Sequence record: PX104378.1
DNA from: a phage
Length of the DNA stretch: 64,000 nucleotides
Direction: 5' to 3' (one strand)
The notes beneath the pieces were generated by a model that worked only from the letters and a program-made list of their open reading frames with translations, made no database searches and was not told the origin of the DNA. The first letter of the stretch is position 1, and each line of letters begins with the position of its first letter. Both the position numbers and the translations under genes were made by a program. Below are positions 1 to 58,836 of the stretch, piece by piece.

Positions 1-401
1 ACAATTTCTGATATCTCGTCGGTCATGTCTTCTTCCCCTAAGAGAGCACCATTTACCCATTCGTATTGTTCAGACACATAATCACAGATTGCATTATATT
101 CTGCTGGGGTTATGTTGTTATGTTTGTAATATTTGAATACATTATCTCCAAAATCTTCGGAGTGTACTTCATACATCACATTAATGATTTTCTTGACAAA
201 TCCATAATCTTGTGTCTCGCGCTCAAGGAAGCGGATAATCTTCACATAATCATCAAAGTTAATCTGATCGCTGATCATCTCAGTGATCATGTAACCATTA
301 ATACCCTCAATGCCATATGTTTCGATGTAATTATCCATACGTTCCATCATTGATTCGCGTGAATCTTCTGAAAGACGAAAATCCTGTAATTGTTTGAACA
401 T
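1..401 (-). CDS. hypothetical acidic protein, 3' end beyond window edge
   Basis: ATG at 401 with GGGAGG SD 8 nt upstream; frame open to position 1 (MFKQLQDFRLSEDSRESMMERMDNY...). Confidence 0.5.
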   Translation of the reverse strand, partial: MFKQLQDFRLSEDSRESMMERMDNYIETYGIEGINGYMITEMISDQINFDDYVKIIRFLERETQDYGFVKKIINVMYEVHSEDFGDNVFKYYKHNNITPAEYNAICDYVSEQYEWVNGALLGEEDMTDEISEI

Positions 402-479: not shown

Positions 480-2531
480 TTACATTTTAAATTTATCTGG
501 CATTGCGTCTACAGATACCAGATCAGCGATAAGCTGACGTAGAGTTGCCTTATCTGCTTTCTTACGTTCGGTTTTAGCTTCGGTAATAAAGCTGGAGAAA
601 GACAGGTCAGAAGCAGGTTTAACAACACCTTCACGGATGAATGCATCACCGTCCGCGATCATCTCGCCAGATTCTTGTAATGCTGCCAGTTCATTTTTGT
701 TCATAATATGTGCCTCAATGTAATAAGTTTCTTGTGAATCCGTCGATGCCGTAGCACGAGTTACCGTATCAAAGGATAACACAACACCGCGAGGAAGTAA
801 AATCTCGCATTCTTTGTAAGCAAATGCTTTGTTACCTACTGGCAATACGGGGATGTTTTCCGCGCCAGCAATGGAGAAAGCAACATTAGCGCCACCTTCA
901 CCGCGAGATCCAGCCATAGAATCTACACCAGCAACGGCACTAGCCACGTTTGCATTCCAGCCGCCAAAAATGTTAGGTGCAAGGGAAGTGCTCACATAGT
1001 TTTTAAAGTAAAACGCTTTTTGCTTACGTGCAGTTTCCCACATTTGCGACCGGAAGTCCATACCACGATACAGAATAGTACCAGGATCAAGTTTAACGCC
1101 ATAGTTGGAGAAGGCATTATCCAGTGCATCGCACATCTTGACCAATTCTTCTGGATCTGCGATGCCTTCAAACTCTTCCAGCTTACGGTCGGTTAGGAAG
1201 TTGTTCATATTGATGTATGCTGCATCGGCATATTCGCTCAACACAAAACCTTCCGCGCCCGGCAGATCAAGATCAATATCTGCCATCATTTCACCCATGT
1301 TGCTAGCAATTGCTTCAAACATACCGGAAGCAACATTACGTAGGGCATCGGTTTTAATCTGTGTGATGTGACTACGCAGCATTTCAGCTTTTACATCTGC
1401 TGGCATAGACTGGTCTACTCGATCCATTGCCAGGGCGGTGATCTTGTTTTCGAATACTTCCTCGCTCATGATTTCTTTTAAGCGTTTGATTGATGCTGCG
1501 ATAACTTCCGCAGACAACGGATCATATTGATCCTGAACTTTTACCAGTTCGCTTACTGCATATTTTGCATCGGCTTCGCTTTCAAAAATAGTACGCATGA
1601 AACCATAGCGAGTGATAATATCACTTGTCCAGTCATTCAGAGAACGAGCGGTTGAACGTTCTAAGGCTTGACGATCAATCAGAGTATTAAACTGTTTCTT
1701 AGGTTCGGCTTCGGTGATATCTTCTTCTGGTTTAAGATTAATTTTTTCTGGATGATTCACGTAGTCGCTGTTATATGTCGCTTGAGTTTTCAGCATTTCT
1801 TCTTTAGTCAAACGAGATTTAGCCGCTACGCGTTGTTCCGCTTCCGCGTTTCGTTCTTCTTCTGACACAAGACTAGCCGCATACGCCTCATCTTTAGTCA
1901 GAGATTCACCAGTAGCCTTAGATACCCAGCGATCACCTAAATCACTTTCTACTTTAGTGAACAAGGATTCATCAAGTTTAATCCCTTTAATCTTATCAAT
2001 CGCCATCCCGCGACGCTTGACAACAACTAAAGCGATCTTTTTGCTGGTCATTACTTCCTGCTGGAATACTTCAAACTTCGGTGTACGACGCACCAAACGC
2101 TCTATAACGCGCTTAACCAGTTCGGTCTTACCTTTCATGCGGGATACGTTAAAACGGAACATAACAGCGTCTAATTGCGCTTTACGGGCTGTTTCCATAA
2201 CCACATCAAAAGCACTTGCCATAACTGCAATCGGGTTATCGCCTAGACCATTTTTAAGCTGTACAATACGACCGCTTTTGTTCATTTCGCACAGTACAAC
2301 ATGTGCGGTCTTGTCACCCATACGAATGATTTTAGGTGTTTTGTTGGTGAAGTTACAAAGACGGACAATCACATCTTTATCGCGTGTCTGTACTGCAAAA
2401 AGCTGTTTAGGATTCTGCTTAGGCTTTAAGCACTGTACCGGAGCAATACTGCCAAAGTTTTCTTCCTCTTCCGTCAACAGCCATTTCTCGAAAGATTCAA
2501 TCATTAGATCGTCGATTTCTAAGTTAAACAT
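480..2531 (-). CDS. alt: Alt-like ADP-ribosyltransferase (virion protein)
   Basis: 683 aa (T4 Alt 682 aa); C-terminal R-S-ExE ART signature (YRGMD, STS, ECEILLPRG); GAGGA SD. Confidence 0.85.
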   Translation of the reverse strand: MFNLEIDDLMIESFEKWLLTEEEENFGSIAPVQCLKPKQNPKQLFAVQTRDKDVIVRLCNFTNKTPKIIRMGDKTAHVVLCEMNKSGRIVQLKNGLGDNPIAVMASAFDVVMETARKAQLDAVMFRFNVSRMKGKTELVKRVIERLVRRTPKFEVFQQEVMTSKKIALVVVKRRGMAIDKIKGIKLDESLFTKVESDLGDRWVSKATGESLTKDEAYAASLVSEEERNAEAEQRVAAKSRLTKEEMLKTQATYNSDYVNHPEKINLKPEEDITEAEPKKQFNTLIDRQALERSTARSLNDWTSDIITRYGFMRTIFESEADAKYAVSELVKVQDQYDPLSAEVIAASIKRLKEIMSEEVFENKITALAMDRVDQSMPADVKAEMLRSHITQIKTDALRNVASGMFEAIASNMGEMMADIDLDLPGAEGFVLSEYADAAYINMNNFLTDRKLEEFEGIADPEELVKMCDALDNAFSNYGVKLDPGTILYRGMDFRSQMWETARKQKAFYFKNYVSTSLAPNIFGGWNANVASAVAGVDSMAGSRGEGGANVAFSIAGAENIPVLPVGNKAFAYKECEILLPRGVVLSFDTVTRATASTDSQETYYIEAHIMNKNELAALQESGEMIADGDAFIREGVVKPASDLSFSSFITEAKTERKKADKATLRQLIADLVSVDAMPDKFKM

Positions 2532-2882: not shown

Positions 2883-3401
2883 TTAGTTATTTTTTAATTG
2901 CTCATCTTGCAATAAAGCAATCACATGCTGGCGATGTTCTTCCGATTGAGGCACACCGAAAAAGTTTGTTTTGTAGAAATACTCTAATCGGTCTTCTCGT
3001 GTGCTCTCTTCCATCATGATCGCGGGTAGTCCGAGATTTCGGAAACGTCGCTTTTCTGCTGGCGTAAAATCGCTGTAATACAGCATAGAATCATCATTAC
3101 CAGCAATGCTAAACTCATCCTTCATGAAGGAGAATATTGCGTTTAAACGCTGTTTACCGTCCACTATTTCGATTTCATAGCGAGAGCCATCATCAATCTT
3201 AGCCATTGCGATAGCACCAACCGGAAAATCATTAATCAGGTTTTCGATAAACATACGTTTGTTTTCGGTGTCCCATACCAAAGGACGCTGATAATCTGGG
3301 TTCATGTTGATATAGCCATCTTCTAACCACGCCTCATAAACAGAGATGACAAAGTTTTTAGTATTGGTATAGTAACGGCGTTTAGGAGTTAAACGGTTCA
3401 T
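2883..3401 (-). CDS. standalone DUF262 / ParB-like domain protein
   Basis: 172 aa; YQRPLVW and IVDGKQRLNAIF match the DUF262 QR..VW and DGQQR motifs; no DUF1524/HNH partner domain. Confidence 0.6.
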   Translation of the reverse strand: MNRLTPKRRYYTNTKNFVISVYEAWLEDGYINMNPDYQRPLVWDTENKRMFIENLINDFPVGAIAMAKIDDGSRYEIEIVDGKQRLNAIFSFMKDEFSIAGNDDSMLYYSDFTPAEKRRFRNLGLPAIMMEESTREDRLEYFYKTNFFGVPQSEEHRQHVIALLQDEQLKNN

Positions 3402-3577
3402 AGTGTGCTTACCTTTTCAATATATGCGTCCGCATACTGGCGAATGCTCATTTCTTCTCGTACTGCTGCTACAAATTCTTTCATGGATTCAAACCATTTG
3501 TAGGTGTCGCGATACATGACCAACTCTTCCCAAGTAAGATCGCAAATCTCTTTACCGTGTAGTTGTGGTGTTATCAT
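3398..3577 (-). CDS. small hypothetical protein (59 aa)
   Basis: ATGA start/stop overlaps with both neighbours (translational coupling); not in ORF track because under 60 aa. Confidence 0.4.
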   Translation of the reverse strand: MITPQLHGKEICDLTWEELVMYRDTYKWFESMKEFVAAVREEMSIRQYADAYIEKVSTL

Positions 3578-27391: not shown

Positions 27392-27433
27392 AATTATACC
27401 TCTTTTATACATTAACTATTAATTTGCTAGACT

Positions 27434-27461
27434 ATTATACAGATTTAAATTTACTTGTCAA
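27434..27461 (-). promoter_or_regulatory. sigma70-type promoter upstream of gene 32
   Basis: TTGACA-N16-TATAAT overlapping the 3' end of gene 59. Confidence 0.5.
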
Positions 27462-39982: not shown

Positions 39983-40222
39983 ATGGTCTATAATATCGTC
40001 ATTGGTGCTTTGTCTAATTTCGGAATGAAACTATTGTCAAAGTTAATTAGTGAAAAGATGCTCACTAAAATTTTCTTCTACTGCGCTCGTCGTCTTGCGG
40101 CTTATACCAATACGCCAATTGATGATCGTTTCGTGGAAGAACTTTATAAGGAGTTTAATAAAGATCAGTCAGAAGATAGTAACGAGCAAGATAAACCTAG
40201 TGATAGTCAAGTACCTAAATAA
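39983..40222 (+). CDS. hypothetical protein with hydrophobic N-terminus (79 aa)
   Basis: AAGGAG SD; sits where T4 has gene 38. Confidence 0.45.
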   Translation: MVYNIVIGALSNFGMKLLSKLISEKMLTKIFFYCARRLAAYTNTPIDDRFVEELYKEFNKDQSEDSNEQDKPSDSQVPK

Positions 40223-40255
40223 GAGTACACTGTCATAGTTATCTTAGGGCATTAT

Positions 40256-40912
40256 ATGCAAGTTTCTGAAAAAGAGAAAGACTTTGCTATCTCAAATGTC
40301 CTGCGCGCTATTTTCACAACTAAAAGCACGGAGTTGCTCGTACTTCGTGTTTTTGCTGCCGTCGTGTTGTCCATATTAGCATTTGTCGTTTATAGTAAAA
40401 ACGAGTTATTTGCGCTTTATAAAGAGACTCGTTATGAGACTTATGCTCACGTTCTCCAGGTAGAGAAAGACCGCAATTTTGATAATGCAGCACAGGAGCA
40501 GTTACAGATAGTTCATGTGTCGGCTGATGCCGATTTTTCTGCTGTTTTTAGTTTTCGTCCGAAAAACCTAAACTATTTTGTTGATTTGGTGGCATATGAA
40601 GGAAAGCTACCGCATACAATTGACGAAAAGAATTTAGGCGGATTCCCTATCAATAAAACGAGTGAAGAATATCGTAGGCATCTTTTAGGTAAATCCTATT
40701 TTACTGATAAAGATTTCCAGTATATTCCATCGAGGGAGAAAAAATTAGAGAATATCGATATAGGGTTTATGTATTCTTGTCCTATATTCAATCTCGATAA
40801 TGTCTATTCTGGTAGTATCGCCATTGCATGGAGGAATAAACCAGATATTGACATTGAGAATTTAGATACTCTTTGCAATCAATCTGCCAGAATCCTCGGA
40901 AGGATCAGATAA
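40256..40912 (+). CDS. t: holin
   Basis: 218 aa (same as T4 T); one TM segment; EQLQIVH.S..ADFSAV.SFRPKNLNYFVD..AYEGKLP and ARILGR match recalled T4 holin. Confidence 0.85.
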   Translation: MQVSEKEKDFAISNVLRAIFTTKSTELLVLRVFAAVVLSILAFVVYSKNELFALYKETRYETYAHVLQVEKDRNFDNAAQEQLQIVHVSADADFSAVFSFRPKNLNYFVDLVAYEGKLPHTIDEKNLGGFPINKTSEEYRRHLLGKSYFTDKDFQYIPSREKKLENIDIGFMYSCPIFNLDNVYSGSIAIAWRNKPDIDIENLDTLCNQSARILGRIR

Positions 40913-40916
40913 CTTA

Positions 40917-40950
40917 AAGGGGAAGCCTTTCGGCCTCCCCTTCTTTTTTA
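40917..40950 (+). terminator. bidirectional rho-independent terminator
   Basis: AAGGGGAAGCC-TTTC-GGCCTCCCCTT hairpin followed by TCTTTTTTATT, between convergent genes. Confidence 0.7.
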
Positions 40951-41196
40951 TTGGCGCATAGAAGCCCCTGAATCACATTTTGACGCTGTATGATGAAAAC
41001 ATGTAGCGTACCAGTCATCGGCTTGCTTGTCTTCGTCAGAGAACGCGTAATTTCGTTGTATACCGTTTTCTACTTTGACCAGTGCAATAGCTGTTTCTGG
41101 AAGATCAATCAATCGGACAAAATCACCATCTTCCCATTCTACACGAGCAATATCATAACCCATCTCAAAATAAACAATCGCTTGCTCTAATCTCAT
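40948..41196 (-). CDS. hypothetical protein (82 aa)
   Basis: ORF; last gene of minus-strand block converging on t. Confidence 0.45.
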   Translation of the reverse strand: MRLEQAIVYFEMGYDIARVEWEDGDFVRLIDLPETAIALVKVENGIQRNYAFSDEDKQADDWYATCFHHTASKCDSGASMRQ

Positions 41197-41525
41197 TCTG
41201 GAAACTTCCCGTAAATGTTCTCTGCCAACATACGCGCATCGCTAATGATATCTTTCATGCTATGACCGTAGTGTTCAGCCATTGAGTTGACACAATCAAC
41301 AAAGAAATTATAACGGCGACGGTTTAAGATTTCTTCTCTGCTATAGTTTTCATATTTGACGGTCGAGTGTGCTTTCTCGATTGCCTTTATCGCTATATTG
41401 ACTTCATTGATAATGGTTTTAGCATTGTATGCACCACGACGGATCAGGATATTTGTCAATTCTCTTGCAATATCTTGCAATTCTTCATATTCATGTTCAA
41501 ACATAATCAACCTCTCAAAATACAA
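41193..41525 (-). CDS. hypothetical protein (110 aa)
   Basis: ORF with 4-nt overlap to downstream gene. Confidence 0.5.
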   Translation of the reverse strand: MYFERLIMFEHEYEELQDIARELTNILIRRGAYNAKTIINEVNIAIKAIEKAHSTVKYENYSREEILNRRRYNFFVDCVNSMAEHYGHSMKDIISDARMLAENIYGKFPE

Positions 41526-41529
41526 TCCC

Positions 41530-41862
41530 TTACAGATGAAAACCTGTTACGATCACCGCATCGATCGTACCGCTAGGAATAAACGGTTCGCCCTCTTTTA
41601 TTTCAACTTTGAATTGATGCCATTTCGCTAATACTTCTTCCGGTACACCCAGCGATTCGGCGTCTGCTTTAGTTTCATCCATAATCCAACTAGGCTGCAT
41701 GAGAGCATAGTTTACATAGTCCATTTCTGGTGTCATGTCATCAATGTTAATATATTTGCAGTTGACGCGTTTCAGAATTTCAAATTCTTTATTGTCAACC
41801 TGTACCATGTATAATTCAGTAGTTTCTGGAATCAGTTCCCACACAATCAGTACATTTTTCAT
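41530..41862 (-). CDS. hypothetical protein (110 aa)
   Basis: ORF. Confidence 0.5.
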   Translation of the reverse strand: MKNVLIVWELIPETTELYMVQVDNKEFEILKRVNCKYINIDDMTPEMDYVNYALMQPSWIMDETKADAESLGVPEEVLAKWHQFKVEIKEGEPFIPSGTIDAVIVTGFHL

Positions 41863-41870
41863 AGTTCACC

Positions 41871-42239
41871 TCACTTAACAAAGATTTTCTTTAATGCTTT
41901 CAGGATCGTTGCTTCCGGCGCTTCTTCCGGTGGAGGAAGCAATTCTACCACTTCCTCTTCCAACTCGATATAGTCTACCAGATATTCTACATAGAATGCA
42001 AGTGCTTCCATGAAATTAGATGCTACATCCGATTCACCACAAGCTCCTACATGCATTGTATAAACATCACTGCGATCAAGTTTGTGGATGCTTCCCAGAT
42101 AGTTTCGGTTATACCAGACTTCCCACACTTTCAGCTTTCCGGTTTTGGTTGCTGTTTTATAATCGGTTTCGTAATGATGCAATTGACGTTGCAAATCATT
42201 GATAATAACACATTTTTCGTAATTGCTTTGAATTTCCAT
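41871..42239 (-). CDS. hypothetical protein (122 aa)
   Basis: ORF. Confidence 0.5.
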   Translation of the reverse strand: MEIQSNYEKCVIINDLQRQLHHYETDYKTATKTGKLKVWEVWYNRNYLGSIHKLDRSDVYTMHVGACGESDVASNFMEALAFYVEYLVDYIELEEEVVELLPPPEEAPEATILKALKKIFVK

Positions 42240-42249
42240 GATGTAATCC

Positions 42250-42441
42250 TCACTTATCGTTAAGAAGTTCTAAAACTTTCTGTCGTACTTTGTCAATATT
42301 AGTTGATTCAAAAACTGTACGGTATCCCCAGCGTTGACCGTATGAGCGCGAGCAATCCCCATATCCCCATTGTTCAACCTGATAGTATTCAAGGAATGGG
42401 TGTTGCCGAACTATGATACCATCACGGTTAAAAATTACCAT
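42250..42441 (-). CDS. hypothetical protein (63 aa)
   Basis: ORF. Confidence 0.4.
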   Translation of the reverse strand: MVIFNRDGIIVRQHPFLEYYQVEQWGYGDCSRSYGQRWGYRTVFESTNIDKVRQKVLELLNDK

Positions 42442-42464
42442 AATATAATCCTCATGTCAACAAC

Positions 42465-42764
42465 TTATTTTCGGTTGTGGTCACGATATGTTTTAAAATA
42501 TCCCTCGTACCACGGTAAAACATCTGGATTTTTACCACTATACAGACCTTTAACCATCATGTCAATAAGACCGTCCGGTGTTTGATAATTACCAGCTTTT
42601 ATAAGCTCTCTGATTAAAATTTCCTTGTATATGTCTTTCGGATCTTCGTAATCAACTTGTATTGTGGTTGTTGTCCCGCTTAATTTGGTTTCTGGAGTAT
42701 CTTGCATCGCCTTCCACCAATCTTTTGTAATCTTCATGCTGTTGAATTTCATAATTATCTGCAC
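42465..42764 (-). CDS. hypothetical protein (99 aa)
   Basis: ORF overlapping the 3' end of 42755..43522. Confidence 0.45.
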   Translation of the reverse strand: MQIIMKFNSMKITKDWWKAMQDTPETKLSGTTTTIQVDYEDPKDIYKEILIRELIKAGNYQTPDGLIDMMVKGLYSGKNPDVLPWYEGYFKTYRDHNRK

Positions 42765-43522
42765 CCGTACTGGTCAACATAGGTTTTAGAGTGTCCTTGT
42801 TCGCGGACTTCTAAGCGAATGATATCGCTATCCTGTTCACGCCACACATAATACTTTTTATTTTCTTTCCAGCCGCTAAAAACGATCATTCCGTTGTCAT
42901 CAACTACTCGTTTTGTGTTTGCCTTATGAACATCATTATTGTCGATGTATGTAAAATGGATAATCTGACCATCTTTTACTTTCAGAGTCAATTCACCTGG
43001 ATTGTATTCTTTATAAAAAGGCTGTTCTTTCGGCTTAGTGTTTGCTCCGTCGATATTTTTCCATTTAAAGTGAGATTCACATTGCAAGGTAAACTCGCTG
43101 GTTTGTGGTTTCTTTTCTTTCTTCGGTTGCTCTACCACTTTTTCTTCCTGTTTCGGTTGTTCTTCTTCAACCTTCGCAGAAGTCTCTGAATCGCTTTCTG
43201 ACGCTGTTTCTTCTTTAGGTAATACATTCATCAAGTTTTGGATTTGAGCGTTATATACAGCCTCCAGTGGCTGAATCTGCCCGATATTGATCATTGTATC
43301 ACGAACGGTTTTATTCCAGTTGCGTTGCTCTTGTTTCAGAGACGGATCAATCTTAACAGCCTTAACATATACTTCATGGAGTTTAGAATCCAGTGCGGAG
43401 ATTGACTCATTAGCACAAATAAACTTCTCTGATTTGGTAGTGGCTTTAGCGCAATCGAAGGACGCAGCATTAGCACCGAATGCAGTAGCAGAAAGAACGA
43501 TAGCAGCGATAATGTTTTTCAT
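42755..43522 (-). CDS. secreted protein with DUF1311 (LprI-like) N-terminal domain
   Basis: signal peptide MKNIIAAIVLSATAFGANA; then FDCAKATT.SEKFICANESISALDSKLHEVY ... EQRNW typical of DUF1311. Confidence 0.55.
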   Translation of the reverse strand: MKNIIAAIVLSATAFGANAASFDCAKATTKSEKFICANESISALDSKLHEVYVKAVKIDPSLKQEQRNWNKTVRDTMINIGQIQPLEAVYNAQIQNLMNVLPKEETASESDSETSAKVEEEQPKQEEKVVEQPKKEKKPQTSEFTLQCESHFKWKNIDGANTKPKEQPFYKEYNPGELTLKVKDGQIIHFTYIDNNDVHKANTKRVVDDNGMIVFSGWKENKKYYVWREQDSDIIRLEVREQGHSKTYVDQYGCR

Positions 43523-43556
43523 AATATATTCCTCAGTGTTTTGTCTTGATGTGAGT

Positions 43557-43585
43557 ATCTTACTACTCCCTTAATCCGGTGTCAA
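43557..43585 (-). promoter_or_regulatory. sigma70-type early promoter cassette
   Basis: TTGACA-N17-TAAGAT on minus strand. Confidence 0.5.
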
Positions 43586-43592
43586 CTACTTT

Positions 43593-43748
43593 TTAAATTT
43601 CTTCTACAGTAAAGTCTTCAATGTTGTTGTGCTCGGCGAACGTTGCCAGACCAGCATTCCATGCATCATCCTCAGAGAAGAATACACCGTAACGTTCATA
43701 TCCCTTAGCGCCTTCAAATTTAACCAGTAATTTGTGAGTATGTTTCAT
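43593..43748 (-). CDS. small hypothetical protein (51 aa)
   Basis: start at MKHTHKL behind cassette leader GAAGGAGAATCAAAATG. Confidence 0.4.
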   Translation of the reverse strand: MKHTHKLLVKFEGAKGYERYGVFFSEDDAWNAGLATFAEHNNIEDFTVEEI

Positions 43749-43779
43749 TTTGATTCTCCTTCGTTGTCTTGATGAGTTC

Positions 43780-43808
43780 ATTGTAGGGGATCGCCGATCC
43801 CCTGTCAA
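43780..43808 (-). promoter_or_regulatory. sigma70-type early promoter cassette
   Basis: TTGACA-GGGGATCGGCGATCCCC(17)-TACAAT on minus strand. Confidence 0.55.
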
Positions 43809-43818
43809 CAACTATTTT

Positions 43819-44031
43819 TTAATTTTTACCCGCTCGTGCATTAATACGCATTTTCTGAATAGCCATGATCTGGCTTACTGCTTCTTCTTTACGTTCTTGC
43901 GTGATAACGTGACCAGATTCCGCAAACTCTCCCGCAACTTCTTCTACGATCTCGCGAACTTGAGAACATCCAAAGATGCGGTTTCCTTCGTAGCTCATAA
44001 ATTCAGTCACTACTTGCTCAATAGATTTCAT
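43819..44031 (-). CDS. hypothetical protein (70 aa)
   Basis: ORF behind cassette leader GAAGGAGAATCACATG. Confidence 0.5.
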   Translation of the reverse strand: MKSIEQVVTEFMSYEGNRIFGCSQVREIVEEVAGEFAESGHVITQERKEEAVSQIMAIQKMRINARAGKN

Positions 44032-44064
44032 GTGATTCTCCTTCTTTCGTTTCGGTATGGGAGT

Positions 44065-44093
44065 ATATTACTACTCCCGTTTCTTTACGTCAA
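44065..44093 (-). promoter_or_regulatory. sigma70-type early promoter cassette
   Basis: TTGACG-N17-TAATAT on minus strand. Confidence 0.5.
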
Positions 44094-44100
44094 CTGGTTT

Positions 44101-44343
44101 TTAGAAATTTTTCGCTTCTTCTTCGGTCATCATAACCGCGCATTCGTGCATAACTTTGAAAACCGGATCAATCATGTCAAATGCTTCACGGGACAGTTTA
44201 CGAGAAGCGATTTTGATTGCTTCTACGTCTTCTACTACAGGAACAAAAACAGTTTTCAGTTCGTCGAGGACGGCAGCTTCTTTTTCATTCAGGAAGATCC
44301 CAGCGTCGTACAGTGCAACTTCGATAACATTAACTTTAACCAT
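44101..44343 (-). CDS. hypothetical protein (80 aa)
   Basis: start at MVKVNVIEV with GGAGGAA SD. Confidence 0.5.
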   Translation of the reverse strand: MVKVNVIEVALYDAGIFLNEKEAAVLDELKTVFVPVVEDVEAIKIASRKLSREAFDMIDPVFKVMHECAVMMTEEEAKNF

Positions 44344-44377
44344 TTTTATTTCCTCCAGTTCGTTTCGGTATGGGAGT

Positions 44378-44406
44378 ATAATACTACCGATGACCTTTGG
44401 CGTCAA
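44378..44406 (-). promoter_or_regulatory. sigma70-type early promoter cassette
   Basis: TTGACG-N17-TATTAT on minus strand. Confidence 0.45.
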
Positions 44407-44608
44407 CTGCTTTTTTATTATTTTCGTGAAAATTTTTCGTCGCCTCATGTGCTTTTCGCTGGGCTTCTTGTTGTGCTTGCTGGCGTGCTGCCTCTTGCGA
44501 TGCCATAACGGAAGCATTTGCGGCAGTTACAGCCGCTACCATCGCTGCGGTATTGGCATTTACAGTACATGCGCTCGCCAACAAAGCAATTGCAATCATT
44601 TTCTTCAT
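44384..44608 (-). CDS. small secreted protein (74 aa)
   Basis: N-terminal signal-like MKKMIAIALLASACTVNA; AGGGGA SD; 3' end overlaps next promoter cassette. Confidence 0.45.
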   Translation of the reverse strand: MKKMIAIALLASACTVNANTAAMVAAVTAANASVMASQEAARQQAQQEAQRKAHEATKNFHENNKKAVDAKGHR

Positions 44609-44775
44609 AATTTCCCCTTTAGGTTATCTTCGACCTTCATCCATTCCGCATATTCTTGCGCGGCTACTTTCGGAATTAGGCCGTCTTCGTACATTGCCTC
44701 AAGTAATTCTTCGTCGGTGGGCTTATACCCCAGATAAGCCGCAACCTGATTTTTCCAAATCTTATACCAGTTCAT
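44605..44775 (-). CDS. hypothetical protein (56 aa)
   Basis: start taken at MNWYKIW; weak SD. Confidence 0.35.
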   Translation of the reverse strand: MNWYKIWKNQVAAYLGYKPTDEELLEAMYEDGLIPKVAAQEYAEWMKVEDNLKGKL

Positions 44776-44779
44776 ATTA

Positions 44780-45052
44780 TCACCAATCAAGAGCGCGTGT
44801 CTCTGCGTCTTCCCATGCTTGATCCATAACAGCCTTGAAAACATATTCTAAGGTATCATCTTTCGAGAATCCGAAGATCTTAGACGGAATATCTTCAATT
44901 GCTACTCCAGCAACTTCCGCATTACGTGCCTGGCAATAATGCAACTCTAAGTTATCGAGATAACGACCGCCTAATTTCTCCATATCGTCCCAGCATTTCC
45001 AGTAACCTACTTTATCGGCAATTGCTAACACTTTGCTGTTTTTGTTGCTCAT
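44780..45052 (-). CDS. hypothetical protein (90 aa)
   Basis: start at MSNKNSK behind cassette leader AAAGGAGAATCAAAGATG. Confidence 0.5.
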   Translation of the reverse strand: MSNKNSKVLAIADKVGYWKCWDDMEKLGGRYLDNLELHYCQARNAEVAGVAIEDIPSKIFGFSKDDTLEYVFKAVMDQAWEDAETRALDW

Positions 45053-45083
45053 CTTTGATTCTCCTTTTGTTTGGTATGTGTGT

Positions 45084-45112
45084 ATTATGCAATGTTTGAT
45101 TATGGAAGTCAA
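45084..45112 (-). promoter_or_regulatory. sigma70-type early promoter cassette
   Basis: TTGACT-N17-CATAAT on minus strand. Confidence 0.5.
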
Positions 45113-45125
45113 CAACTTTTCAAAT

Positions 45126-45151
45126 AAAAAAGCCGACCACAAGGATCGGCT
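45126..45151 (-). terminator. rho-independent terminator
   Basis: AGCCGA...TCGGCT hairpin followed on minus strand by UUUUUUAUUUG. Confidence 0.5.
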
Positions 45152-45161
45152 TAATAATCAG

Positions 45162-45554
45162 TTACTTACTAAATTTCTTTTTGGCTTCGTCTACTGCATG
45201 AGATGCCAGTACCGCCGCCGCATGTGCGCTTTTATCTGTGTTACAGAGAACACCCAAATAAACATCACGCCAAAGTTTAATCATCTCATAGATCATATCA
45301 ATATCATTTTCTTGTTTGTTGGCGATGCTACTTGTCGTTATCTGGTAAGGCAACGGTTTAATCTGTACTGGATCTGCCATTGGGCTAATCGGTTTCGGTT
45401 CGGTCATAATAGGTGCTGTTGGTGATGTTTTCCATACGCTATCATGCCACGGTTTAATCGTTGTATCGTACAGTTTGTAAGGATTTTTATCTGGATTAAC
45501 CATCCATGCATGATGATTACCCAAACCATTTGAAGTGATGCGTCGTTCAGTCAT
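45162..45554 (-). CDS. hypothetical protein (130 aa)
   Basis: ORF. Confidence 0.5.
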   Translation of the reverse strand: MTERRITSNGLGNHHAWMVNPDKNPYKLYDTTIKPWHDSVWKTSPTAPIMTEPKPISPMADPVQIKPLPYQITTSSIANKQENDIDMIYEMIKLWRDVYLGVLCNTDKSAHAAAVLASHAVDEAKKKFSK

Positions 45555-45557
45555 AAT

Positions 45558-45761
45558 TTATTTCCTCTCTGAAAACTCTTTCATCAAGTTGTCGATCTTT
45601 GCTCTGTGATCTGGCGTGTTTGTCATCTCTGCTAATTTGCTCAGAGATTCACTGGTGATCCGGTTGGATTCTTCCAGTGTTTCAACGACCATTGGCACAA
45701 TCTTTTTATTTTTGTACACAAATGCAATATAACCGCCTTCTGGATATTCTTTCATAATCAA
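45558..45761 (-). CDS. hypothetical protein (67 aa)
   Basis: ORF with 4-nt overlap to gene 52. Confidence 0.5.
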   Translation of the reverse strand: MIMKEYPEGGYIAFVYKNKKIVPMVVETLEESNRITSESLSKLAEMTNTPDHRAKIDNLMKEFSERK

Positions 45762-47119
45762 CCCTTCTTAAGTTCTTTAAGATCTTTCTTATATTCTTTC
45801 ATTGCGGTCGTCTTTGTCCAATACTCATATTCACTATGATGTTTATCGGCATCTTTGACCAGTCGATCATACTCTTCTTGAGTAACGCTATACAATGGCA
45901 TAGAAACGAGCTTATCGGCGTATGGACGCAGTTTTTCATGTCCATTGATGGATTGCATTACCTCGGCCTTTTTCTTGCCCTGTATCGCGATTTCGCCCTT
46001 AATTACGCGGTCGATAAATTCGGCTTTAGCCATTGCATAATTGTATGCTTCCAGTGTTTCCGCTTGCATCAATTCAATGCGTTTATCAACATACCCTAAG
46101 CGGATTTCGACGAATCGGCGAATCAGGTCGCTAGCTTTCTCGAATACTTCTACTAAACCACGTTCGTTAACTACTACGATATTCTGGGCTACTAACTGCG
46201 TTAGTTTAAAATCCTTCATGATTTGCTCATGTCGAGCGGATTCATCTTCGCTTTTGAAATAATCACGTTTCAGTGTTACCTCAAATCTGAATCCGTCCTT
46301 AGAGCAACGGTCATTATACGATACAATCAGATCTTTTTCTTCCAGTGCATCCAGTACCGCTACATATTCTTCACGGTCGAACTTATAAGGAACTTCTGAT
46401 ATTGTCAGTTTAGTCTTGCCGTTTAGTTCATATGTACCCTCAAGAATCACACCATCGCGATCATCTCGCGGGATAACTTTACCCGTGAATTTCGGGAATT
46501 GAACACTAGGTTCTTTATCCAGTTTTCCGGCAAGTGCTAGCTCTGTGCATTCAATAAGGCTTTCCAGTGAATGCGGTAAAATGTCAGTTTTATACCCTGT
46601 AGCAATACCACTAATACCATTAGCCAATACCATTGGCACAACTGGCAAGTAGAACGCTGGCGGGATGTGTTCCAGATCTTCGTGCTTAGGTGCGCAATTC
46701 ATATCTTTATAGATTTTAAAGAAGTTTTCATGCACACGAGCAAAGATATAACGTGCCGCACCTGCTTTCTGGACTAAACGCGATCCGAAGTTACCTTGAC
46801 CGTCAAGCAGTGGAGTATTATTGCTCCATGTATTTGCCATGAGTGATCCGGCTTCTACGGCATTAGTTTCCCCGTGGTGATACCCCAACTCAGCGACACC
46901 AGATCCAATATCTGCCATCTTACGGAATTTCTTACGGTCGCCTTTACTCTTTTGCAAAGCACATTCCATAACAAAGCGTTGCACTGGTTTAAGACCATCC
47001 ACTAATTGAGGAATCCCGCGTTCCTCGGCAGAATAGATCGCATATTCCTTAGCTTCATTATGTACAATGCTTTCAAGGCTACGGTAAGTAACTGATTTAT
47101 TCATCTTCACCTCATACAC
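45758..47119 (-). CDS. 52: DNA topoisomerase II medium subunit (GyrA-like)
   Basis: 453 aa; KPVQRFV, GELGYHHGE, LLDGQGNFGSR, RYIFAR, IPPAFYLP match recalled T4 gp52. Confidence 0.9.
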   Translation of the reverse strand: MYEVKMNKSVTYRSLESIVHNEAKEYAIYSAEERGIPQLVDGLKPVQRFVMECALQKSKGDRKKFRKMADIGSGVAELGYHHGETNAVEAGSLMANTWSNNTPLLDGQGNFGSRLVQKAGAARYIFARVHENFFKIYKDMNCAPKHEDLEHIPPAFYLPVVPMVLANGISGIATGYKTDILPHSLESLIECTELALAGKLDKEPSVQFPKFTGKVIPRDDRDGVILEGTYELNGKTKLTISEVPYKFDREEYVAVLDALEEKDLIVSYNDRCSKDGFRFEVTLKRDYFKSEDESARHEQIMKDFKLTQLVAQNIVVVNERGLVEVFEKASDLIRRFVEIRLGYVDKRIELMQAETLEAYNYAMAKAEFIDRVIKGEIAIQGKKKAEVMQSINGHEKLRPYADKLVSMPLYSVTQEEYDRLVKDADKHHSEYEYWTKTTAMKEYKKDLKELKKG

Positions 47120-47474
47120 GCTTACAAATCACATTCTTTACTTTATCAGATTTATCAGCCCAATCCAATAGCCATTTTAACGGAAGGATTGAAACAATAA
47201 ACGGGGCAGCAATCAAAGCAAACATGATACACCTGATAATCAGGAAAACGCAAGTGACAAAACTAGCGATAGTGATCCCGACAAAACAAAATACCATAGA
47301 AAACAGAGTAATGATATAGAAAGGCCAGAATACCCACTCCCGCATCTTAACGCCTTTGTATTCTCTGAATTGCTTAAAATCTACAAACAACTCTCGGATA
47401 GACGCGTACAGGACTGAAAAATCATCTTTCATTGCTCTGAATGAGCAATCTTCTATTTTAGAATGACCTAGCAT
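47112..47474 (-). CDS. membrane protein (120 aa)
   Basis: two to three hydrophobic segments (FWPFYIITLFSMVFCFVGITIASFVTCVFLII...). Confidence 0.5.
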   Translation of the reverse strand: MLGHSKIEDCSFRAMKDDFSVLYASIRELFVDFKQFREYKGVKMREWVFWPFYIITLFSMVFCFVGITIASFVTCVFLIIRCIMFALIAAPFIVSILPLKWLLDWADKSDKVKNVICKRV

Positions 47475-49212: not shown

Positions 49213-49344
49213 TTATTTTGCTTCTACAACCTTGCGGATTGTGCGGTCTGATACATTATAGATTCGTGCCAGTTCGCCTTTAGTCAAGCCGCGAGCGTAT
49301 TGTTTACGGATGGTTTCTTTCTGGATAGCGGTCAGTTTAGTCAT
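49213..49344 (-). CDS. small helix-turn-helix protein (43 aa)
   Basis: MTKLTAIQKETIRKQYARGLTKGELARIYNVSDRTIRKVVEAK; HTH-like; between rIIA and rIIB. Confidence 0.4.
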   Translation of the reverse strand: MTKLTAIQKETIRKQYARGLTKGELARIYNVSDRTIRKVVEAK

Positions 49345-57141: not shown

Positions 57142-57455
57142 TATCCTAAAATCCTCACCTTGCGAACACAGATAGTATTGAGTTCTCGCCGTACCCGTTC
57201 TTTTTCATATTCAGGAATTTTGTATTCTATACCATCCCGAACAATTTCAGAAGACCGGATTATACCAAATTTTCGTTTAGGCACAACCTTGTATTTCGGT
57301 TCACCTGCCAATAGACTCTCACAATAATCTATCTGATCACACATTGACGCTAACGCAGCATCATGAGTTTCGCAAGTTAGGACGCGACCTTTCGCGTCCA
57401 CTGAGTATTGAAAGAATCCGTCTTTATCACGATAACATACAGCAAATACATGCAT
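57141..57455 (-). CDS. hypothetical protein (104 aa)
   Basis: ORF; start/stop abut neighbours. Confidence 0.5.
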   Translation of the reverse strand: MHVFAVCYRDKDGFFQYSVDAKGRVLTCETHDAALASMCDQIDYCESLLAGEPKYKVVPKRKFGIIRSSEIVRDGIEYKIPEYEKERVRRELNTICVRKVRILG

Positions 57456-58210
57456 TATAAACCTACCTTCGCTTTCATCAATTCAATCCACGACGCATCA
57501 ATCGGAAGCCCGTATTTCACGCGTTCTTTTTGTGCTGGCGTTAAGTTCTCATACTTAGAAAGAGATTCAATCAAAACGCTGGTATATTTTAGCACGATTT
57601 CGGTATTGTTTGCAATAGCCTTGAGTTTTTCCTCTTTCTTGTTGATTTCGCTAAGGGCTTGCTTGAGATCTGCAATTTTCTGATAACGTTCTTCCATACG
57701 GAAGAGAGTATTTTTAATCGCTCGCTCGGCTGCCTCTGCTTTCTCCGGTTCGTTGTGCTTTTTGTGGCGCTCGATTGCTAATTTCTTTTCTTCGATTGCC
57801 ATTTCCTGATTTTTGATGCGATTCTCGTTAAGTTCGATCCACTCGATGTACTTTGCACGTAGGGCGATCTCATCATCAGAAAGTTTACCGTTAGTTCCTA
57901 GTTCCTGGATCTCTTTAAGAGATTCGATAGTGTGATTGCCACGGAAAGAATTGTATTTCAGTTTAACCGGAATTACATTGCCATCAACATATCCCAGATT
58001 GCAATCAATGCGCTCTAAGGAGAGTCCGTCATCACCTTCACCGAAAGCCTCACCTGAATATGCGCAATGAGTCTGACGGTAAATGTTACGCACAGTGACT
58101 AAGCTCATAGAGAAGTCTTTGTTGCGACGTGAAGCGCCAGCCATGATAGAGTTCAGACGGAAAACAACCAGCGCCAATTCTTCGTTAGATTTAAAAGCAA
58201 ACAGTTTCAT
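57455..58210 (-). CDS. hypothetical coiled-coil protein (251 aa), srd-position
   Basis: Cys-containing N-terminal domain, Lys/Glu-rich central helix; sits where T4 carries srd; not recognised. Confidence 0.5.
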   Translation of the reverse strand: MKLFAFKSNEELALVVFRLNSIMAGASRRNKDFSMSLVTVRNIYRQTHCAYSGEAFGEGDDGLSLERIDCNLGYVDGNVIPVKLKYNSFRGNHTIESLKEIQELGTNGKLSDDEIALRAKYIEWIELNENRIKNQEMAIEEKKLAIERHKKHNEPEKAEAAERAIKNTLFRMEERYQKIADLKQALSEINKKEEKLKAIANNTEIVLKYTSVLIESLSKYENLTPAQKERVKYGLPIDASWIELMKAKVGL

Positions 58211-58271: not shown

Positions 58272-58775
58272 TTAAATTAAAGAAAATTTGTAAATCTCTA
58301 TCAGGTCGCCGTTACATGCGTAAACTTCCTCGATCTCATCAAGGATCATGGTCGTCCCTGTCTTGTATATGCACTCGCGCTCATCCGCCAACATAGCATA
58401 CAAAGACAGTCGAGTAGTCGGATTGTCATACTCTTTAGACACCACTCGATCAATAGCATGTTCGTAATAATTCATGCAAGGCTTGGTAGGTTTTATTGCA
58501 ATAATCTTTCCTGTTGCATAAACATCGGTTGCAAAGTCCTCTGCTGTTGATTGCAGTGGCGTAAAGCTCATAGGACGCTCTACAACGAAAGAATCGCCTA
58601 CAATTAAGGTATCCAGCTTACGGCCTTCTCTTTTGCTCACACCGCGATACAAGGCTTCATGATGCACTAACCGTTCAGTCTTTTCAATCAATCCATTAAG
58701 GATCGACATATCGATATTTTCTTTAGAGTTCATCACTTCATCAATGATGTTAAGTTCTTCTGGTGTAAATTGCAT
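58272..58775 (-). CDS. modA: ModA/ModB-like ADP-ribosyltransferase
   Basis: R-S-ExE pattern (LYRGV ... PLQSTAED ... ADERECIY); between dda and 56 as in T4; start at MQFTPEE with GGAGG SD. Confidence 0.6.
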   Translation of the reverse strand: MQFTPEELNIIDEVMNSKENIDMSILNGLIEKTERLVHHEALYRGVSKREGRKLDTLIVGDSFVVERPMSFTPLQSTAEDFATDVYATGKIIAIKPTKPCMNYYEHAIDRVVSKEYDNPTTRLSLYAMLADERECIYKTGTTMILDEIEEVYACNGDLIEIYKFSLI

Positions 58776-58808
58776 AATAAAAAGCCTCCAATCTTTCGAC
58801 GGGAGGCA

Positions 58809-58836
58809 TAATAAAACCATTATAGAGTAGTGTCAA
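58809..58836 (-). promoter_or_regulatory. sigma70-type early promoter
   Basis: TTGACA-N16-TATTAT on minus strand. Confidence 0.4.

Follow-up and report, generated by a model that had tools for sequence, protein, structure and literature searches.

The interval between genes t and 52 of an RB49-like phage: sigma70-type early promoters and no recognisable AsiA or MotA

Does a T4-type phage whose genes t and 52 are separated only by small genes of unknown function use the AsiA/MotA middle mode of transcription, and if not, which promoters serve its early genes? The question is raised by positions 40948-45761 of a 64,000-nucleotide stretch of phage DNA (sequence record PX104378.1; the whole 64-kb stretch is called the window below), where an initial annotation made from the sequence alone noticed 15 small open reading frames (ORFs) and many consensus -35 elements, and suggested that middle-mode activation is absent or different and that early genes are driven by host sigma70 holoenzyme. 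Its main point, the lack of an AsiA/MotA middle mode and the dependence of genes on canonical sigma70 -35/-10 promoters, is supported by homologue searches, by counts of Mot boxes and sigma70-type promoters, and by the published account of phage RB49. The source phage is very probably a Krischvirus without MotA, AsiA or a Mot-box promoter class, in which early genes are expressed from sigma70 promoters, including cassettes of the promoter-early stem-loop (PeSL) type, and in which there are two promoter classes. The early/late-only layout of the RB49 group was already published between 2002 and 2010; the observation is real and was mainly read correctly, and the window adds one more isolate of that layout.

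The window belongs to the genus Krischvirus (RB49-like T4-type coliphages, or 'pseudo-T-evens') and shows ~96% identity to known isolates. Megablast searches with positions 40000-47200 and 40000-64000 returned 63 and 82 phage records, respectively, of which the best were all Krischvirus (RB49, Skers, ELT4, Makalu, kaaroe, and others), and the top Krischvirus records were 95-97% identical over 92-98% of the query. The comparison with RB49 was collinear, with 95-97% nucleotide identity over 96-98% of 24 kb. The closest record is ~97% identical to the window and, since none is closer, the source phage is a further RB49-like isolate. The gene order is that of RB49, namely alt ... 30 ... 32, 59, 33, dsbA ... 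34-37 (tail-fibre genes, plus strand) ... t, followed by small ORFs, 52 ... rIIB, rIIA, 39, dexA, dda, srd, modB, 56, 61 ... 41, and the ORFs between t and 52 correspond one by one with RB49p255-p268. Direct searches of the source phage cover the window, and the complete RB49 genome stands in for the remainder.

The initial annotation had stated that the T4-type interval carries asiA and motA, which is true in the five T4-type phages examined: in the T4-like phage HP3, JS09 (RB69-like), Bp7, Klebsiella phage 17-11, and Acinetobacter phage ZZ1, the order of genes across it is 52 - ... - motA - (arn genes) - asiA - t. The gap between holin and topoisomerase genes holds hypothetical proteins only in 25 Krischvirus records among the matches listed. 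Pfam searches at E≤1 with the 15 interval ORFs and their neighbours, and with the remaining 72 small window ORFs (taken from a strand-aware ORF set and joined into chunks for the scan), recovered neither the AsiA nor the MotA family. Hidden Markov models (HMMs) built from seven AsiA and five MotA sequences were run with the --max setting against every six-frame ORF of at least 25 amino acids in the window and the complete RB49 genome, where the best AsiA match (E 0.023) lay inside gp43 (DNA polymerase) and the best MotA match had an E value of 1.5; the same models scored 1e-14 to 1e-107 at positive-control loci. Profile-profile comparison with hhalign gave the interval ORFs a probability of at most 1.9% for either protein and, among the RB49 ORFs, at most 7.2% for MotA and at most 13% for AsiA (649 ORFs compared), the latter from a 16-column match to a 50-amino-acid ORF that lies antisense to an annotated gene. 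The best tblastn matches of the 12 AsiA and MotA proteins had E values of 0.089 (AsiA) and 0.032 (MotA), and motA and asiA are not among the annotated genes of the RB49 RefSeq record (NC_005066). Direct examination of the window and RB49 thus yielded neither an AsiA homologue (~90 amino acids, Pfam AsiA family) nor a homologue of MotA (~211 amino acids, with an N-terminal activation domain and a C-terminal double-wing DNA-binding domain).

The initial annotation had left room for the two genes elsewhere in the genome and had proposed a whole-genome profile search, which was negative in the 64-kb window and in complete RB49; neither gene lies elsewhere as far as the 96-97%-identical RB49 genome shows. 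A relocation of motA and asiA to a place outside the window is accordingly very improbable, although the shuffling of genes by T4-type hyperplastic regions (PMC2839356) and the direct search of only 64 kb of the source genome would both leave space for it, because complete RB49, about 96-97% identical over shared regions, was negative by HMM, hhalign, tblastn, and annotation, and published searches of RB49 were also negative (PMC1524935).

A second line of evidence comes from the promoters themselves. A middle promoter combines a Mot box, (a/t)3TGCTTnA, at -30 with a -10 element and has no -35 element, and was searched for with the strict pattern [AT]3TGCTTNA-N11-13-TANNNT. The strict pattern was absent from the window (0.2 expected) and from the RB49 early strand (0.8 expected); in the control, 50 kb of HP3, the early strand carried five copies (0.3 expected). 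Similarly, a looser Mot core pattern stood at chance in the window (3 vs 3.5 expected) and was enriched in HP3 (17 vs 5.9 expected). The search for MotA boxes at -30 that the initial annotation had proposed therefore ended at chance level in the window with an enriched control, and the early-strand enrichment of Mot boxes that marks the middle mode was not seen.

The sigma70-type pattern TTGACA-N16-18-TANNNT, on the other hand, was found 34 times on the minus strand of the window vs 1.4+/-0.9 in dinucleotide shuffles (~25-fold) and once on the plus strand, which confirms the earlier remark that consensus TTGACA -35 elements are many. The RB49 early strand holds 66 such sites vs 4.3 expected, and the non-early strand of neither the window nor RB49 shows any excess of sigma70-type promoters. 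HP3 has three TTGACA-type sites vs 2.0 expected and eight GTTTAC-type sites vs 0.9, whereas the window has no GTTTAC-type site vs its 34 of the TTGACA type. Sites that match at least 11 of the 12 hexamer positions number 33 in the window vs 1.3 expected. Both the enrichment and the strand bias are direct observations, and they bear on the proposal that the ORFs and the promoter-like motifs are products of chance in A+T-rich sequence, to which next to no credence is given. Such a proposal would draw on the interval at lax criteria, where no enrichment is seen (16 promoter-like sites vs 17.5 expected), and on a site at 42565-42537 that resembles a promoter at 11/12 positions but falls within the coding sequence of the sixth ORF and may indeed be a chance occurrence (about 1.3 expected window-wide). 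However, it is refuted by the shuffling controls, relative to which the stringent sites show a ~25-fold excess, restricted to the coding strand, and it does not account for the extended flanks common to these sites (an A-rich tract upstream, TGTTGACA, and a conserved CAT motif 3' of the -10 hexamer) or for the PHROG families and the conservation in relatives of 13 of the 15 ORFs.

Promoters of the sigma70 consensus precede genes 32, 59, rIIA, 39, and srd. In T4, middle promoters serve several of these genes (32, rIIA, 39). The promoter of gene 32 can be compared directly with its RB49 counterpart:

27434-27461, minus strand: gene 32 early promoter, TTGACA-N16-TATAAT, with hexamers and spacer identical to the 'early RB49 promoter' of NC_005066

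The leader that follows (27400-27440, minus strand) differs from that of RB49 in that ~15 nucleotides are gone, including the GGA Shine-Dalgarno region of RB49, and the first codons read ATGTATAAAAGAG vs ATGTTTAAAC; the true start of gene 32 in the window phage may lie elsewhere.

The published account of RB49 points the same way. A passage of Nolan 2006, citing Desplats 2002, describes RB49 as lacking both an orthologue of motA and a consensus for middle promoters (PMC1524935). In addition, AsiA orthologues are listed for RB69, 44RR, Aeh1, and KVP40, not for RB49, and the early promoters of RB49 are reported to favour G at -33 (TTGACA-like), in agreement with 5'-end mapping (Nolan 2006; PMC1524935). 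A later review lists the phages that carry asiA together with motA and those that carry only asiA, and RB49 is in neither list (Hinton 2010; PMC2988021). Literature searches returned no relevant Krischvirus transcriptome or asiA paper. Desplats 2002 is reported to describe two, not three, temporally controlled promoter classes in RB49.

The interval between t and 52 contains 15 minus-strand ORFs of 51-255 amino acids, as the initial annotation had counted and placed them, with starts here refined against the Makalu_003 and RB49 annotations. From left to right, the borders and the ORFs are as follows:

40256-40912, plus strand: t holin, left border (Pfam Phage_holin_T, 1.7e-61)
40913-40945, no strand assigned: G+C-rich hairpin between the convergent t and ORF1 (fold -23.2 kcal/mol, z -4.8; the Makalu_003 annotation has a terminator here for each strand)
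40948-41196, minus strand: ORF1, 82 amino acids, Tad2-like/DUF2829 (PF11195, 27.1 bits, cut-off 25; PHROG 1048, 1.3e-18)
41193-41504, minus strand: ORF2, 103 amino acids (PHROG 9457)
41530-41862, minus strand: ORF3, 110 amino acids (PHROG 4658; 99% identical to RB49)
41871-42239, minus strand: ORF4, 122 amino acids, homologue of T4-type arn.4 (tblastn 5e-6 to Bp7 arn.4 and 1e-5 to HP3; note to RB49p259)
42250-42441, minus strand: ORF5, 63 amino acids (PHROG 6957)
42465-42743, minus strand: ORF6, 92 amino acids (PHROG 15915; 41% identity to the Makalu_003 allele)
42755-43522, minus strand: ORF7, 255 amino acids (Pfam LprI, 26 bits, cut-off 22; PHROG 14799)
43593-43748, minus strand: ORF8, 51 amino acids (PHROG 19699)
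43819-44031, minus strand: ORF9, 70 amino acids (PHROG 14966)
44101-44343, minus strand: ORF10, 80 amino acids (no PHROG match; absent from RB49)
44384-44608, minus strand: ORF11, 74 amino acids (no PHROG match; absent from RB49)
44605-44775, minus strand: ORF12, 56 amino acids (PHROG 8655)
44780-45052, minus strand: ORF13, 90 amino acids (PHROG 7287)
45162-45554, minus strand: ORF14, 130 amino acids (PHROG 15644)
45558-45755, minus strand: ORF15, 65 amino acids (PHROG 15105)
45758-47119, minus strand: gene 52, topoisomerase II medium subunit, right border (Pfam DNA_topoisoIV, 1.1e-68)

The PHROG families of the 13 assigned ORFs are all labelled as of unknown function, and the majority of the interval ORFs share 88-100% identity with proteins of RB49 or Makalu_003. 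ORF4, ~30% identical to T4-type arn.4, is the sole interval ORF with a tblastn match in the compared T4-type asiA-motA intervals and, because it is an arn.4 homologue, the t-to-52 intervals of the window phage and of the T4-type phages are homologous. The hairpin at 40913-40945 is a probable bidirectional terminator, and ORF15 is probably co-transcribed with gene 52, which it abuts. The N-terminus of ORF11, read by eye, is hydrophobic and resembles a signal peptide.

Three of the interval ORFs were considered as concealed regulators and rejected. ORF1 adjoins t, which is the place of asiA in T4, and is a Tad2-like/DUF2829 protein instead, with an hhalign probability of 0.1% for AsiA. ORF2, the second gene from t, was considered as a hidden AsiA; its AlphaFold2 model consists of four helices (pLDDT, the predicted local distance difference test score, 75) and its homologues are six close Krischvirus-type relatives only. 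A Foldseek search of the PDB with this model returned generic or designed helical bundles only, all at E>0.5, with AsiA not among the 50 matches listed, and the hhalign probability for AsiA was 0.6%. ORF7 was the candidate of MotA size: the initial annotation had held that no ORF of the interval has the size or the sequence of MotA, and the part on sequence stands, with no match found, whereas the part on size fails, since ORF7 has 255 amino acids vs 211 in MotA. ORF7 begins with a signal-peptide-like N-terminal segment, followed by an LprI/DUF1311 domain that an E/K/P-rich linker joins to a C-terminal domain, and its hhalign probability for MotA was 0.2%.

The same three ORFs have features of separate interest. 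The similarity of ORF1 (40948-41196, minus strand) to Tad2 (Thoeris anti-defence 2, the family formerly named DUF2829) is barely over the cut-off; ORF1 has no sequence match in the PDB and may possibly be an anti-Thoeris sponge in a Krischvirus. The alleles of ORF2 are strongly divergent, with identities of 99% (phage Brandy), 83% (Makalu_003), and 53% (RB49p256), and RB49 also carries a distant paralogue, RB49p257 (32% identity, 3e-6); the RB49 positions concerned are 156231-155911 / 156639-156349. ORF7 shares only 67-68% identity with its alleles in RB49 and Makalu_003 and, as LprI/DUF1311 is a lysozyme-inhibitor family, it may, speculatively, inhibit lysozyme in the periplasm and so play a part comparable to that of T4 Spackle.

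The initial annotation had further given each of the 15 ORFs its own promoter cassette, which is correct for about one third of them. Promoter/stem-loop cassettes lie at only five junctions of the interval, upstream of ORF13, ORF10, ORF9, ORF8, and ORF7; the remaining ten junctions are overlaps or gaps of 3-25 nucleotides without room for a promoter, so the ORFs there must be co-transcribed. The five cassettes are as follows:

43523-43592, minus strand: cassette of ORF7; A-rich tract, -35 TTGACA (43585-43580), -10 TAAGAT (43562-43557), weak stem, Shine-Dalgarno sequence
43749-43818, minus strand: cassette of ORF8; -35 TTGACA (43808-43803), -10 TACAAT (43785-43780), 11/12 match; stem GGGGATC-ggc-GATCCCC between the hexamers (-16.3 kcal/mol, z -2.9)
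44032-44100, minus strand: cassette of ORF9; -35 TTGACG (44093-44088), -10 TAATAT (44070-44065); stem GGGAGTA...TACTCCC over the -10 (-11.9 kcal/mol, z -3.2)
44344-44430, minus strand: cassette of ORF10, overlapping the 3' end of ORF11; -35 TTGACG (44406-44401), -10 TATTAT (44383-44378)
45053-45161, minus strand: cassette of ORF13; -35 TTGACT (45112-45107), -10 CATAAT (45089-45084); terminator hairpin and T-run (45152-45130) ahead of the -35 (-12.7 kcal/mol, z -3.3)

When aligned, the cassettes share an AAAAAG tract, GTTGAC(A/G/T), a stem-loop, a -10 hexamer, a CATACC/CATCAA leader, and a GGAG Shine-Dalgarno sequence. This is the anatomy of PeSLs, of which RB49 has ~51, concentrated in hyperplastic regions upstream of orphan ORFs (Arbiol 2010; PMC2839356). 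The sigma70 sites at 45112, 44406, 44093, 43808, and 43585 match the consensus at 9-11 of 12 positions, with an AAAAAG-type tract upstream in all; in all five cassettes, 32-38 nucleotides separate the end of the -10 hexamer from the start of the ORF that follows; and three of the five (those of ORF13, ORF9, and ORF8) have a clear stem-loop. For RB49/phi1 PeSLs other than the five of the window, lacZ fusions in vivo gave a promoter activity of ~13,000 Miller units together with terminator activity (Arbiol 2010; PMC2839356). A further -35-like element, the orphan GTTGTTGACA at 42454-42463, lies 13 nucleotides before the start of ORF5 and has no usable -10 hexamer.

PeSLs have also been proposed to mediate modular shuffling and the formation of mini-circles (Arbiol 2010; PMC2839356). 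In the window, two 29-nucleotide cassette repeats (44046-44074 and 44359-44387), 97% identical and 313 nucleotides apart, flank ORF10, and RB49 lacks the segment with ORF10 and ORF11 (~44095-44617), which Makalu_003 has. By analogy with that proposal, these repeats look like a ready substrate for PeSL mini-circle excision.

The initial annotation had described the holoenzyme that serves these promoters as unmodified host sigma70 RNA polymerase, and this part of its reading does not survive, given an Alt gene, a second Alt-like gene, a ModA/B-like ADP-ribosylase gene, and srd in the window:

3-401, minus strand: Alt-like paralogue, partial at the window edge (PHROG 15144, 2.6e-87)
480-2531, minus strand: Alt-like RNA polymerase ADP-ribosyltransferase, full length (PHROG 802, 8.5e-180; Pfam ADPrib_exo_Tox, 2.3e-9)
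57455-58210, minus strand: Srd homologue, 'Srd anti-sigma factor' in PHROGs (PHROG 1400, 6.4e-74)
58272-58820, minus strand: ModA/B-like RNA polymerase ADP-ribosylase (PHROG 832, 5.2e-21; modB in the RB49 annotation)

Because these genes are present, the polymerase is probably modified, though not by AsiA, and what is missing is specifically the AsiA remodelling of sigma70 region 4. The absence of AsiA fits the promoters described above, since an AsiA-type inhibitor of -35 recognition would be expected to silence the canonical -35 promoters of the replication genes. The window also encodes gp33 and DsbA, and RB49 additionally carries rpbA (RpbA) and gene 55. The adjacent pair of ADP-ribosyltransferase genes is also found in RB49 (RB49p183, RB49p184). 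A 43-amino-acid ORF between rIIA and rIIB (49216-49344, minus strand; RB49p274) is essentially a bare helix-turn-helix, which matches CENP-B_N at 3e-4 (20.8 bits, cut-off 21.2) and PHROG families of DNA-binding proteins and transcription regulators at 1e-5 to 7e-4.

It could be argued from this inventory that in Krischviruses AsiA and MotA gave way to an early protein that is related to neither and binds to sigma70 or RNA polymerase. An orphan ORF of the interval or elsewhere would then be a non-homologous analogue, and the outcome would be a third kinetic class that has stayed hidden, of delayed-early or middle type and with a different promoter signature, or an early, AsiA-like shut-off of -35-dependent promoters. 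The candidates for such an analogue are a conserved orphan ORF of the t-to-52 interval, Srd, and the 43-amino-acid helix-turn-helix ORF (49216-49344), the last two of which are present in the window. The system can be rewired, as is seen in KVP40 and Aeh1, which have AsiA but no recognisable MotA (PMC2988021; PMC1524935), T4 synteny is kept in the form of the arn.4 homologue, and the interval encodes helical proteins of about the size of AsiA, for example, ORF2. The analogue is nevertheless considered unlikely: no remote similarity was detected by HMM, hhalign, or Pfam, the ORF2 model retrieved generic helical bundles only (all E>0.5, AsiA not among the matches listed), Mot-box-like enrichment was not found, early and late promoters are the only classes reported for RB49 by Desplats 2002, and canonical -35 promoters, which an AsiA-like inhibitor would silence, precede the replication genes.

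The preferred reading, early sigma70-type promoters without AsiA, MotA, or Mot boxes, can be put together as follows. The t-to-52 interval would be one of the hyperplastic regions of the phage, where small early genes, most of them orphans, follow one another on the early-gene strand; five of its junctions carry PeSL-type cassettes (A-rich tract, sigma70 promoter, usually a G+C stem-loop as a possible attenuator or terminator, and Shine-Dalgarno sequence) and the other ORFs would be co-transcribed. Prereplicative genes, including those with middle promoters in T4, would be expressed from strong host-type sigma70 promoters by an RNA polymerase that is probably ADP-ribosylated by the Alt and ModA/B homologues and whose sigma70 region 4 would not be remodelled. 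Late genes would be transcribed via the conserved gp55/gp33/gp45 system, which would give two promoter classes, early (sigma70-type) and late (with a TATAAATA-type motif), vs three in T4. The cassette anatomy in this scheme was observed directly; promoter activity and the timing of expression are inferred or come from the literature.

Four points weigh against this reading. The source genome was searched directly over 64 kb alone, with a best match of ~97% identity and RB49 as the proxy for the rest. Sequence and profile methods exclude homologues only, and ~150 orphan ORFs may hide a non-homologous functional analogue. The figure of two promoter classes goes back to what the abstract of Desplats 2002 reportedly says and to the citation of that paper in Nolan 2006. 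Finally, two of the five cassettes have weak or degenerate stems only (z -1.05 and -0.5).

Among known systems, RB49 and phi1 are the closest to the window phage, with the same genus, 95-97% identity, the same t-to-52 gene order, and the same absence of motA, asiA, and Mot boxes. Their PeSLs likewise consist of an A-rich tract, a consensus sigma70 promoter, a G/C stem between or over the hexamers, and a Shine-Dalgarno sequence, and the pattern of insertions and deletions in the window phage matches PeSL-mediated shuffling. The differences from RB49 are allelic only: RB49 lacks ORF10 and ORF11, which the window phage and Makalu_003 have in common, nothing in the window closely corresponds to RB49p256.1 or RB49p257, and ORF2, ORF6, and ORF7 are divergent alleles. 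With T4 and its middle mode, the window phage shares the t ... 52 neighbourhood with an arn.4 homologue, the sigma70 RNA polymerase of the host Escherichia coli, and homologues of Alt, ModA/B, Srd, gp33, and DsbA (gp55 and RpbA in RB49), but it is without AsiA, MotA, and the -30 Mot box, and its early promoters have the canonical TTGACA vs the GTTTAC variant of T4. KVP40 and Aeh1 likewise have neither a consensus for middle promoters nor a MotA that can be recognised (PMC1524935; PMC2988021), although they have kept an AsiA orthologue, whereas the window phage and RB49 have neither protein. The 'morons' of lambdoid phages are similarly small accessory genes with their own promoter and terminator, but the flanks of morons are not conserved, whereas PeSLs are conserved repeats that are thought to be recombination sites themselves (Arbiol 2010; PMC2839356). 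The three-stage programme of T4 is therefore not universal among T4-type coliphages, and a whole genus would use host-type sigma70 promoters together with the late gp55 system and move its accessory genes as promoter/terminator cassettes.

Rfam and transfer RNA scans of the 64-kb window gave no matches. At 2886-3577 (minus strand), a GmrSD_N/DUF262 domain match (3e-19) spans two adjacent ORFs of 172 and 59 amino acids, which are either a split or frameshifted gene or a short version with the N-terminal domain only.

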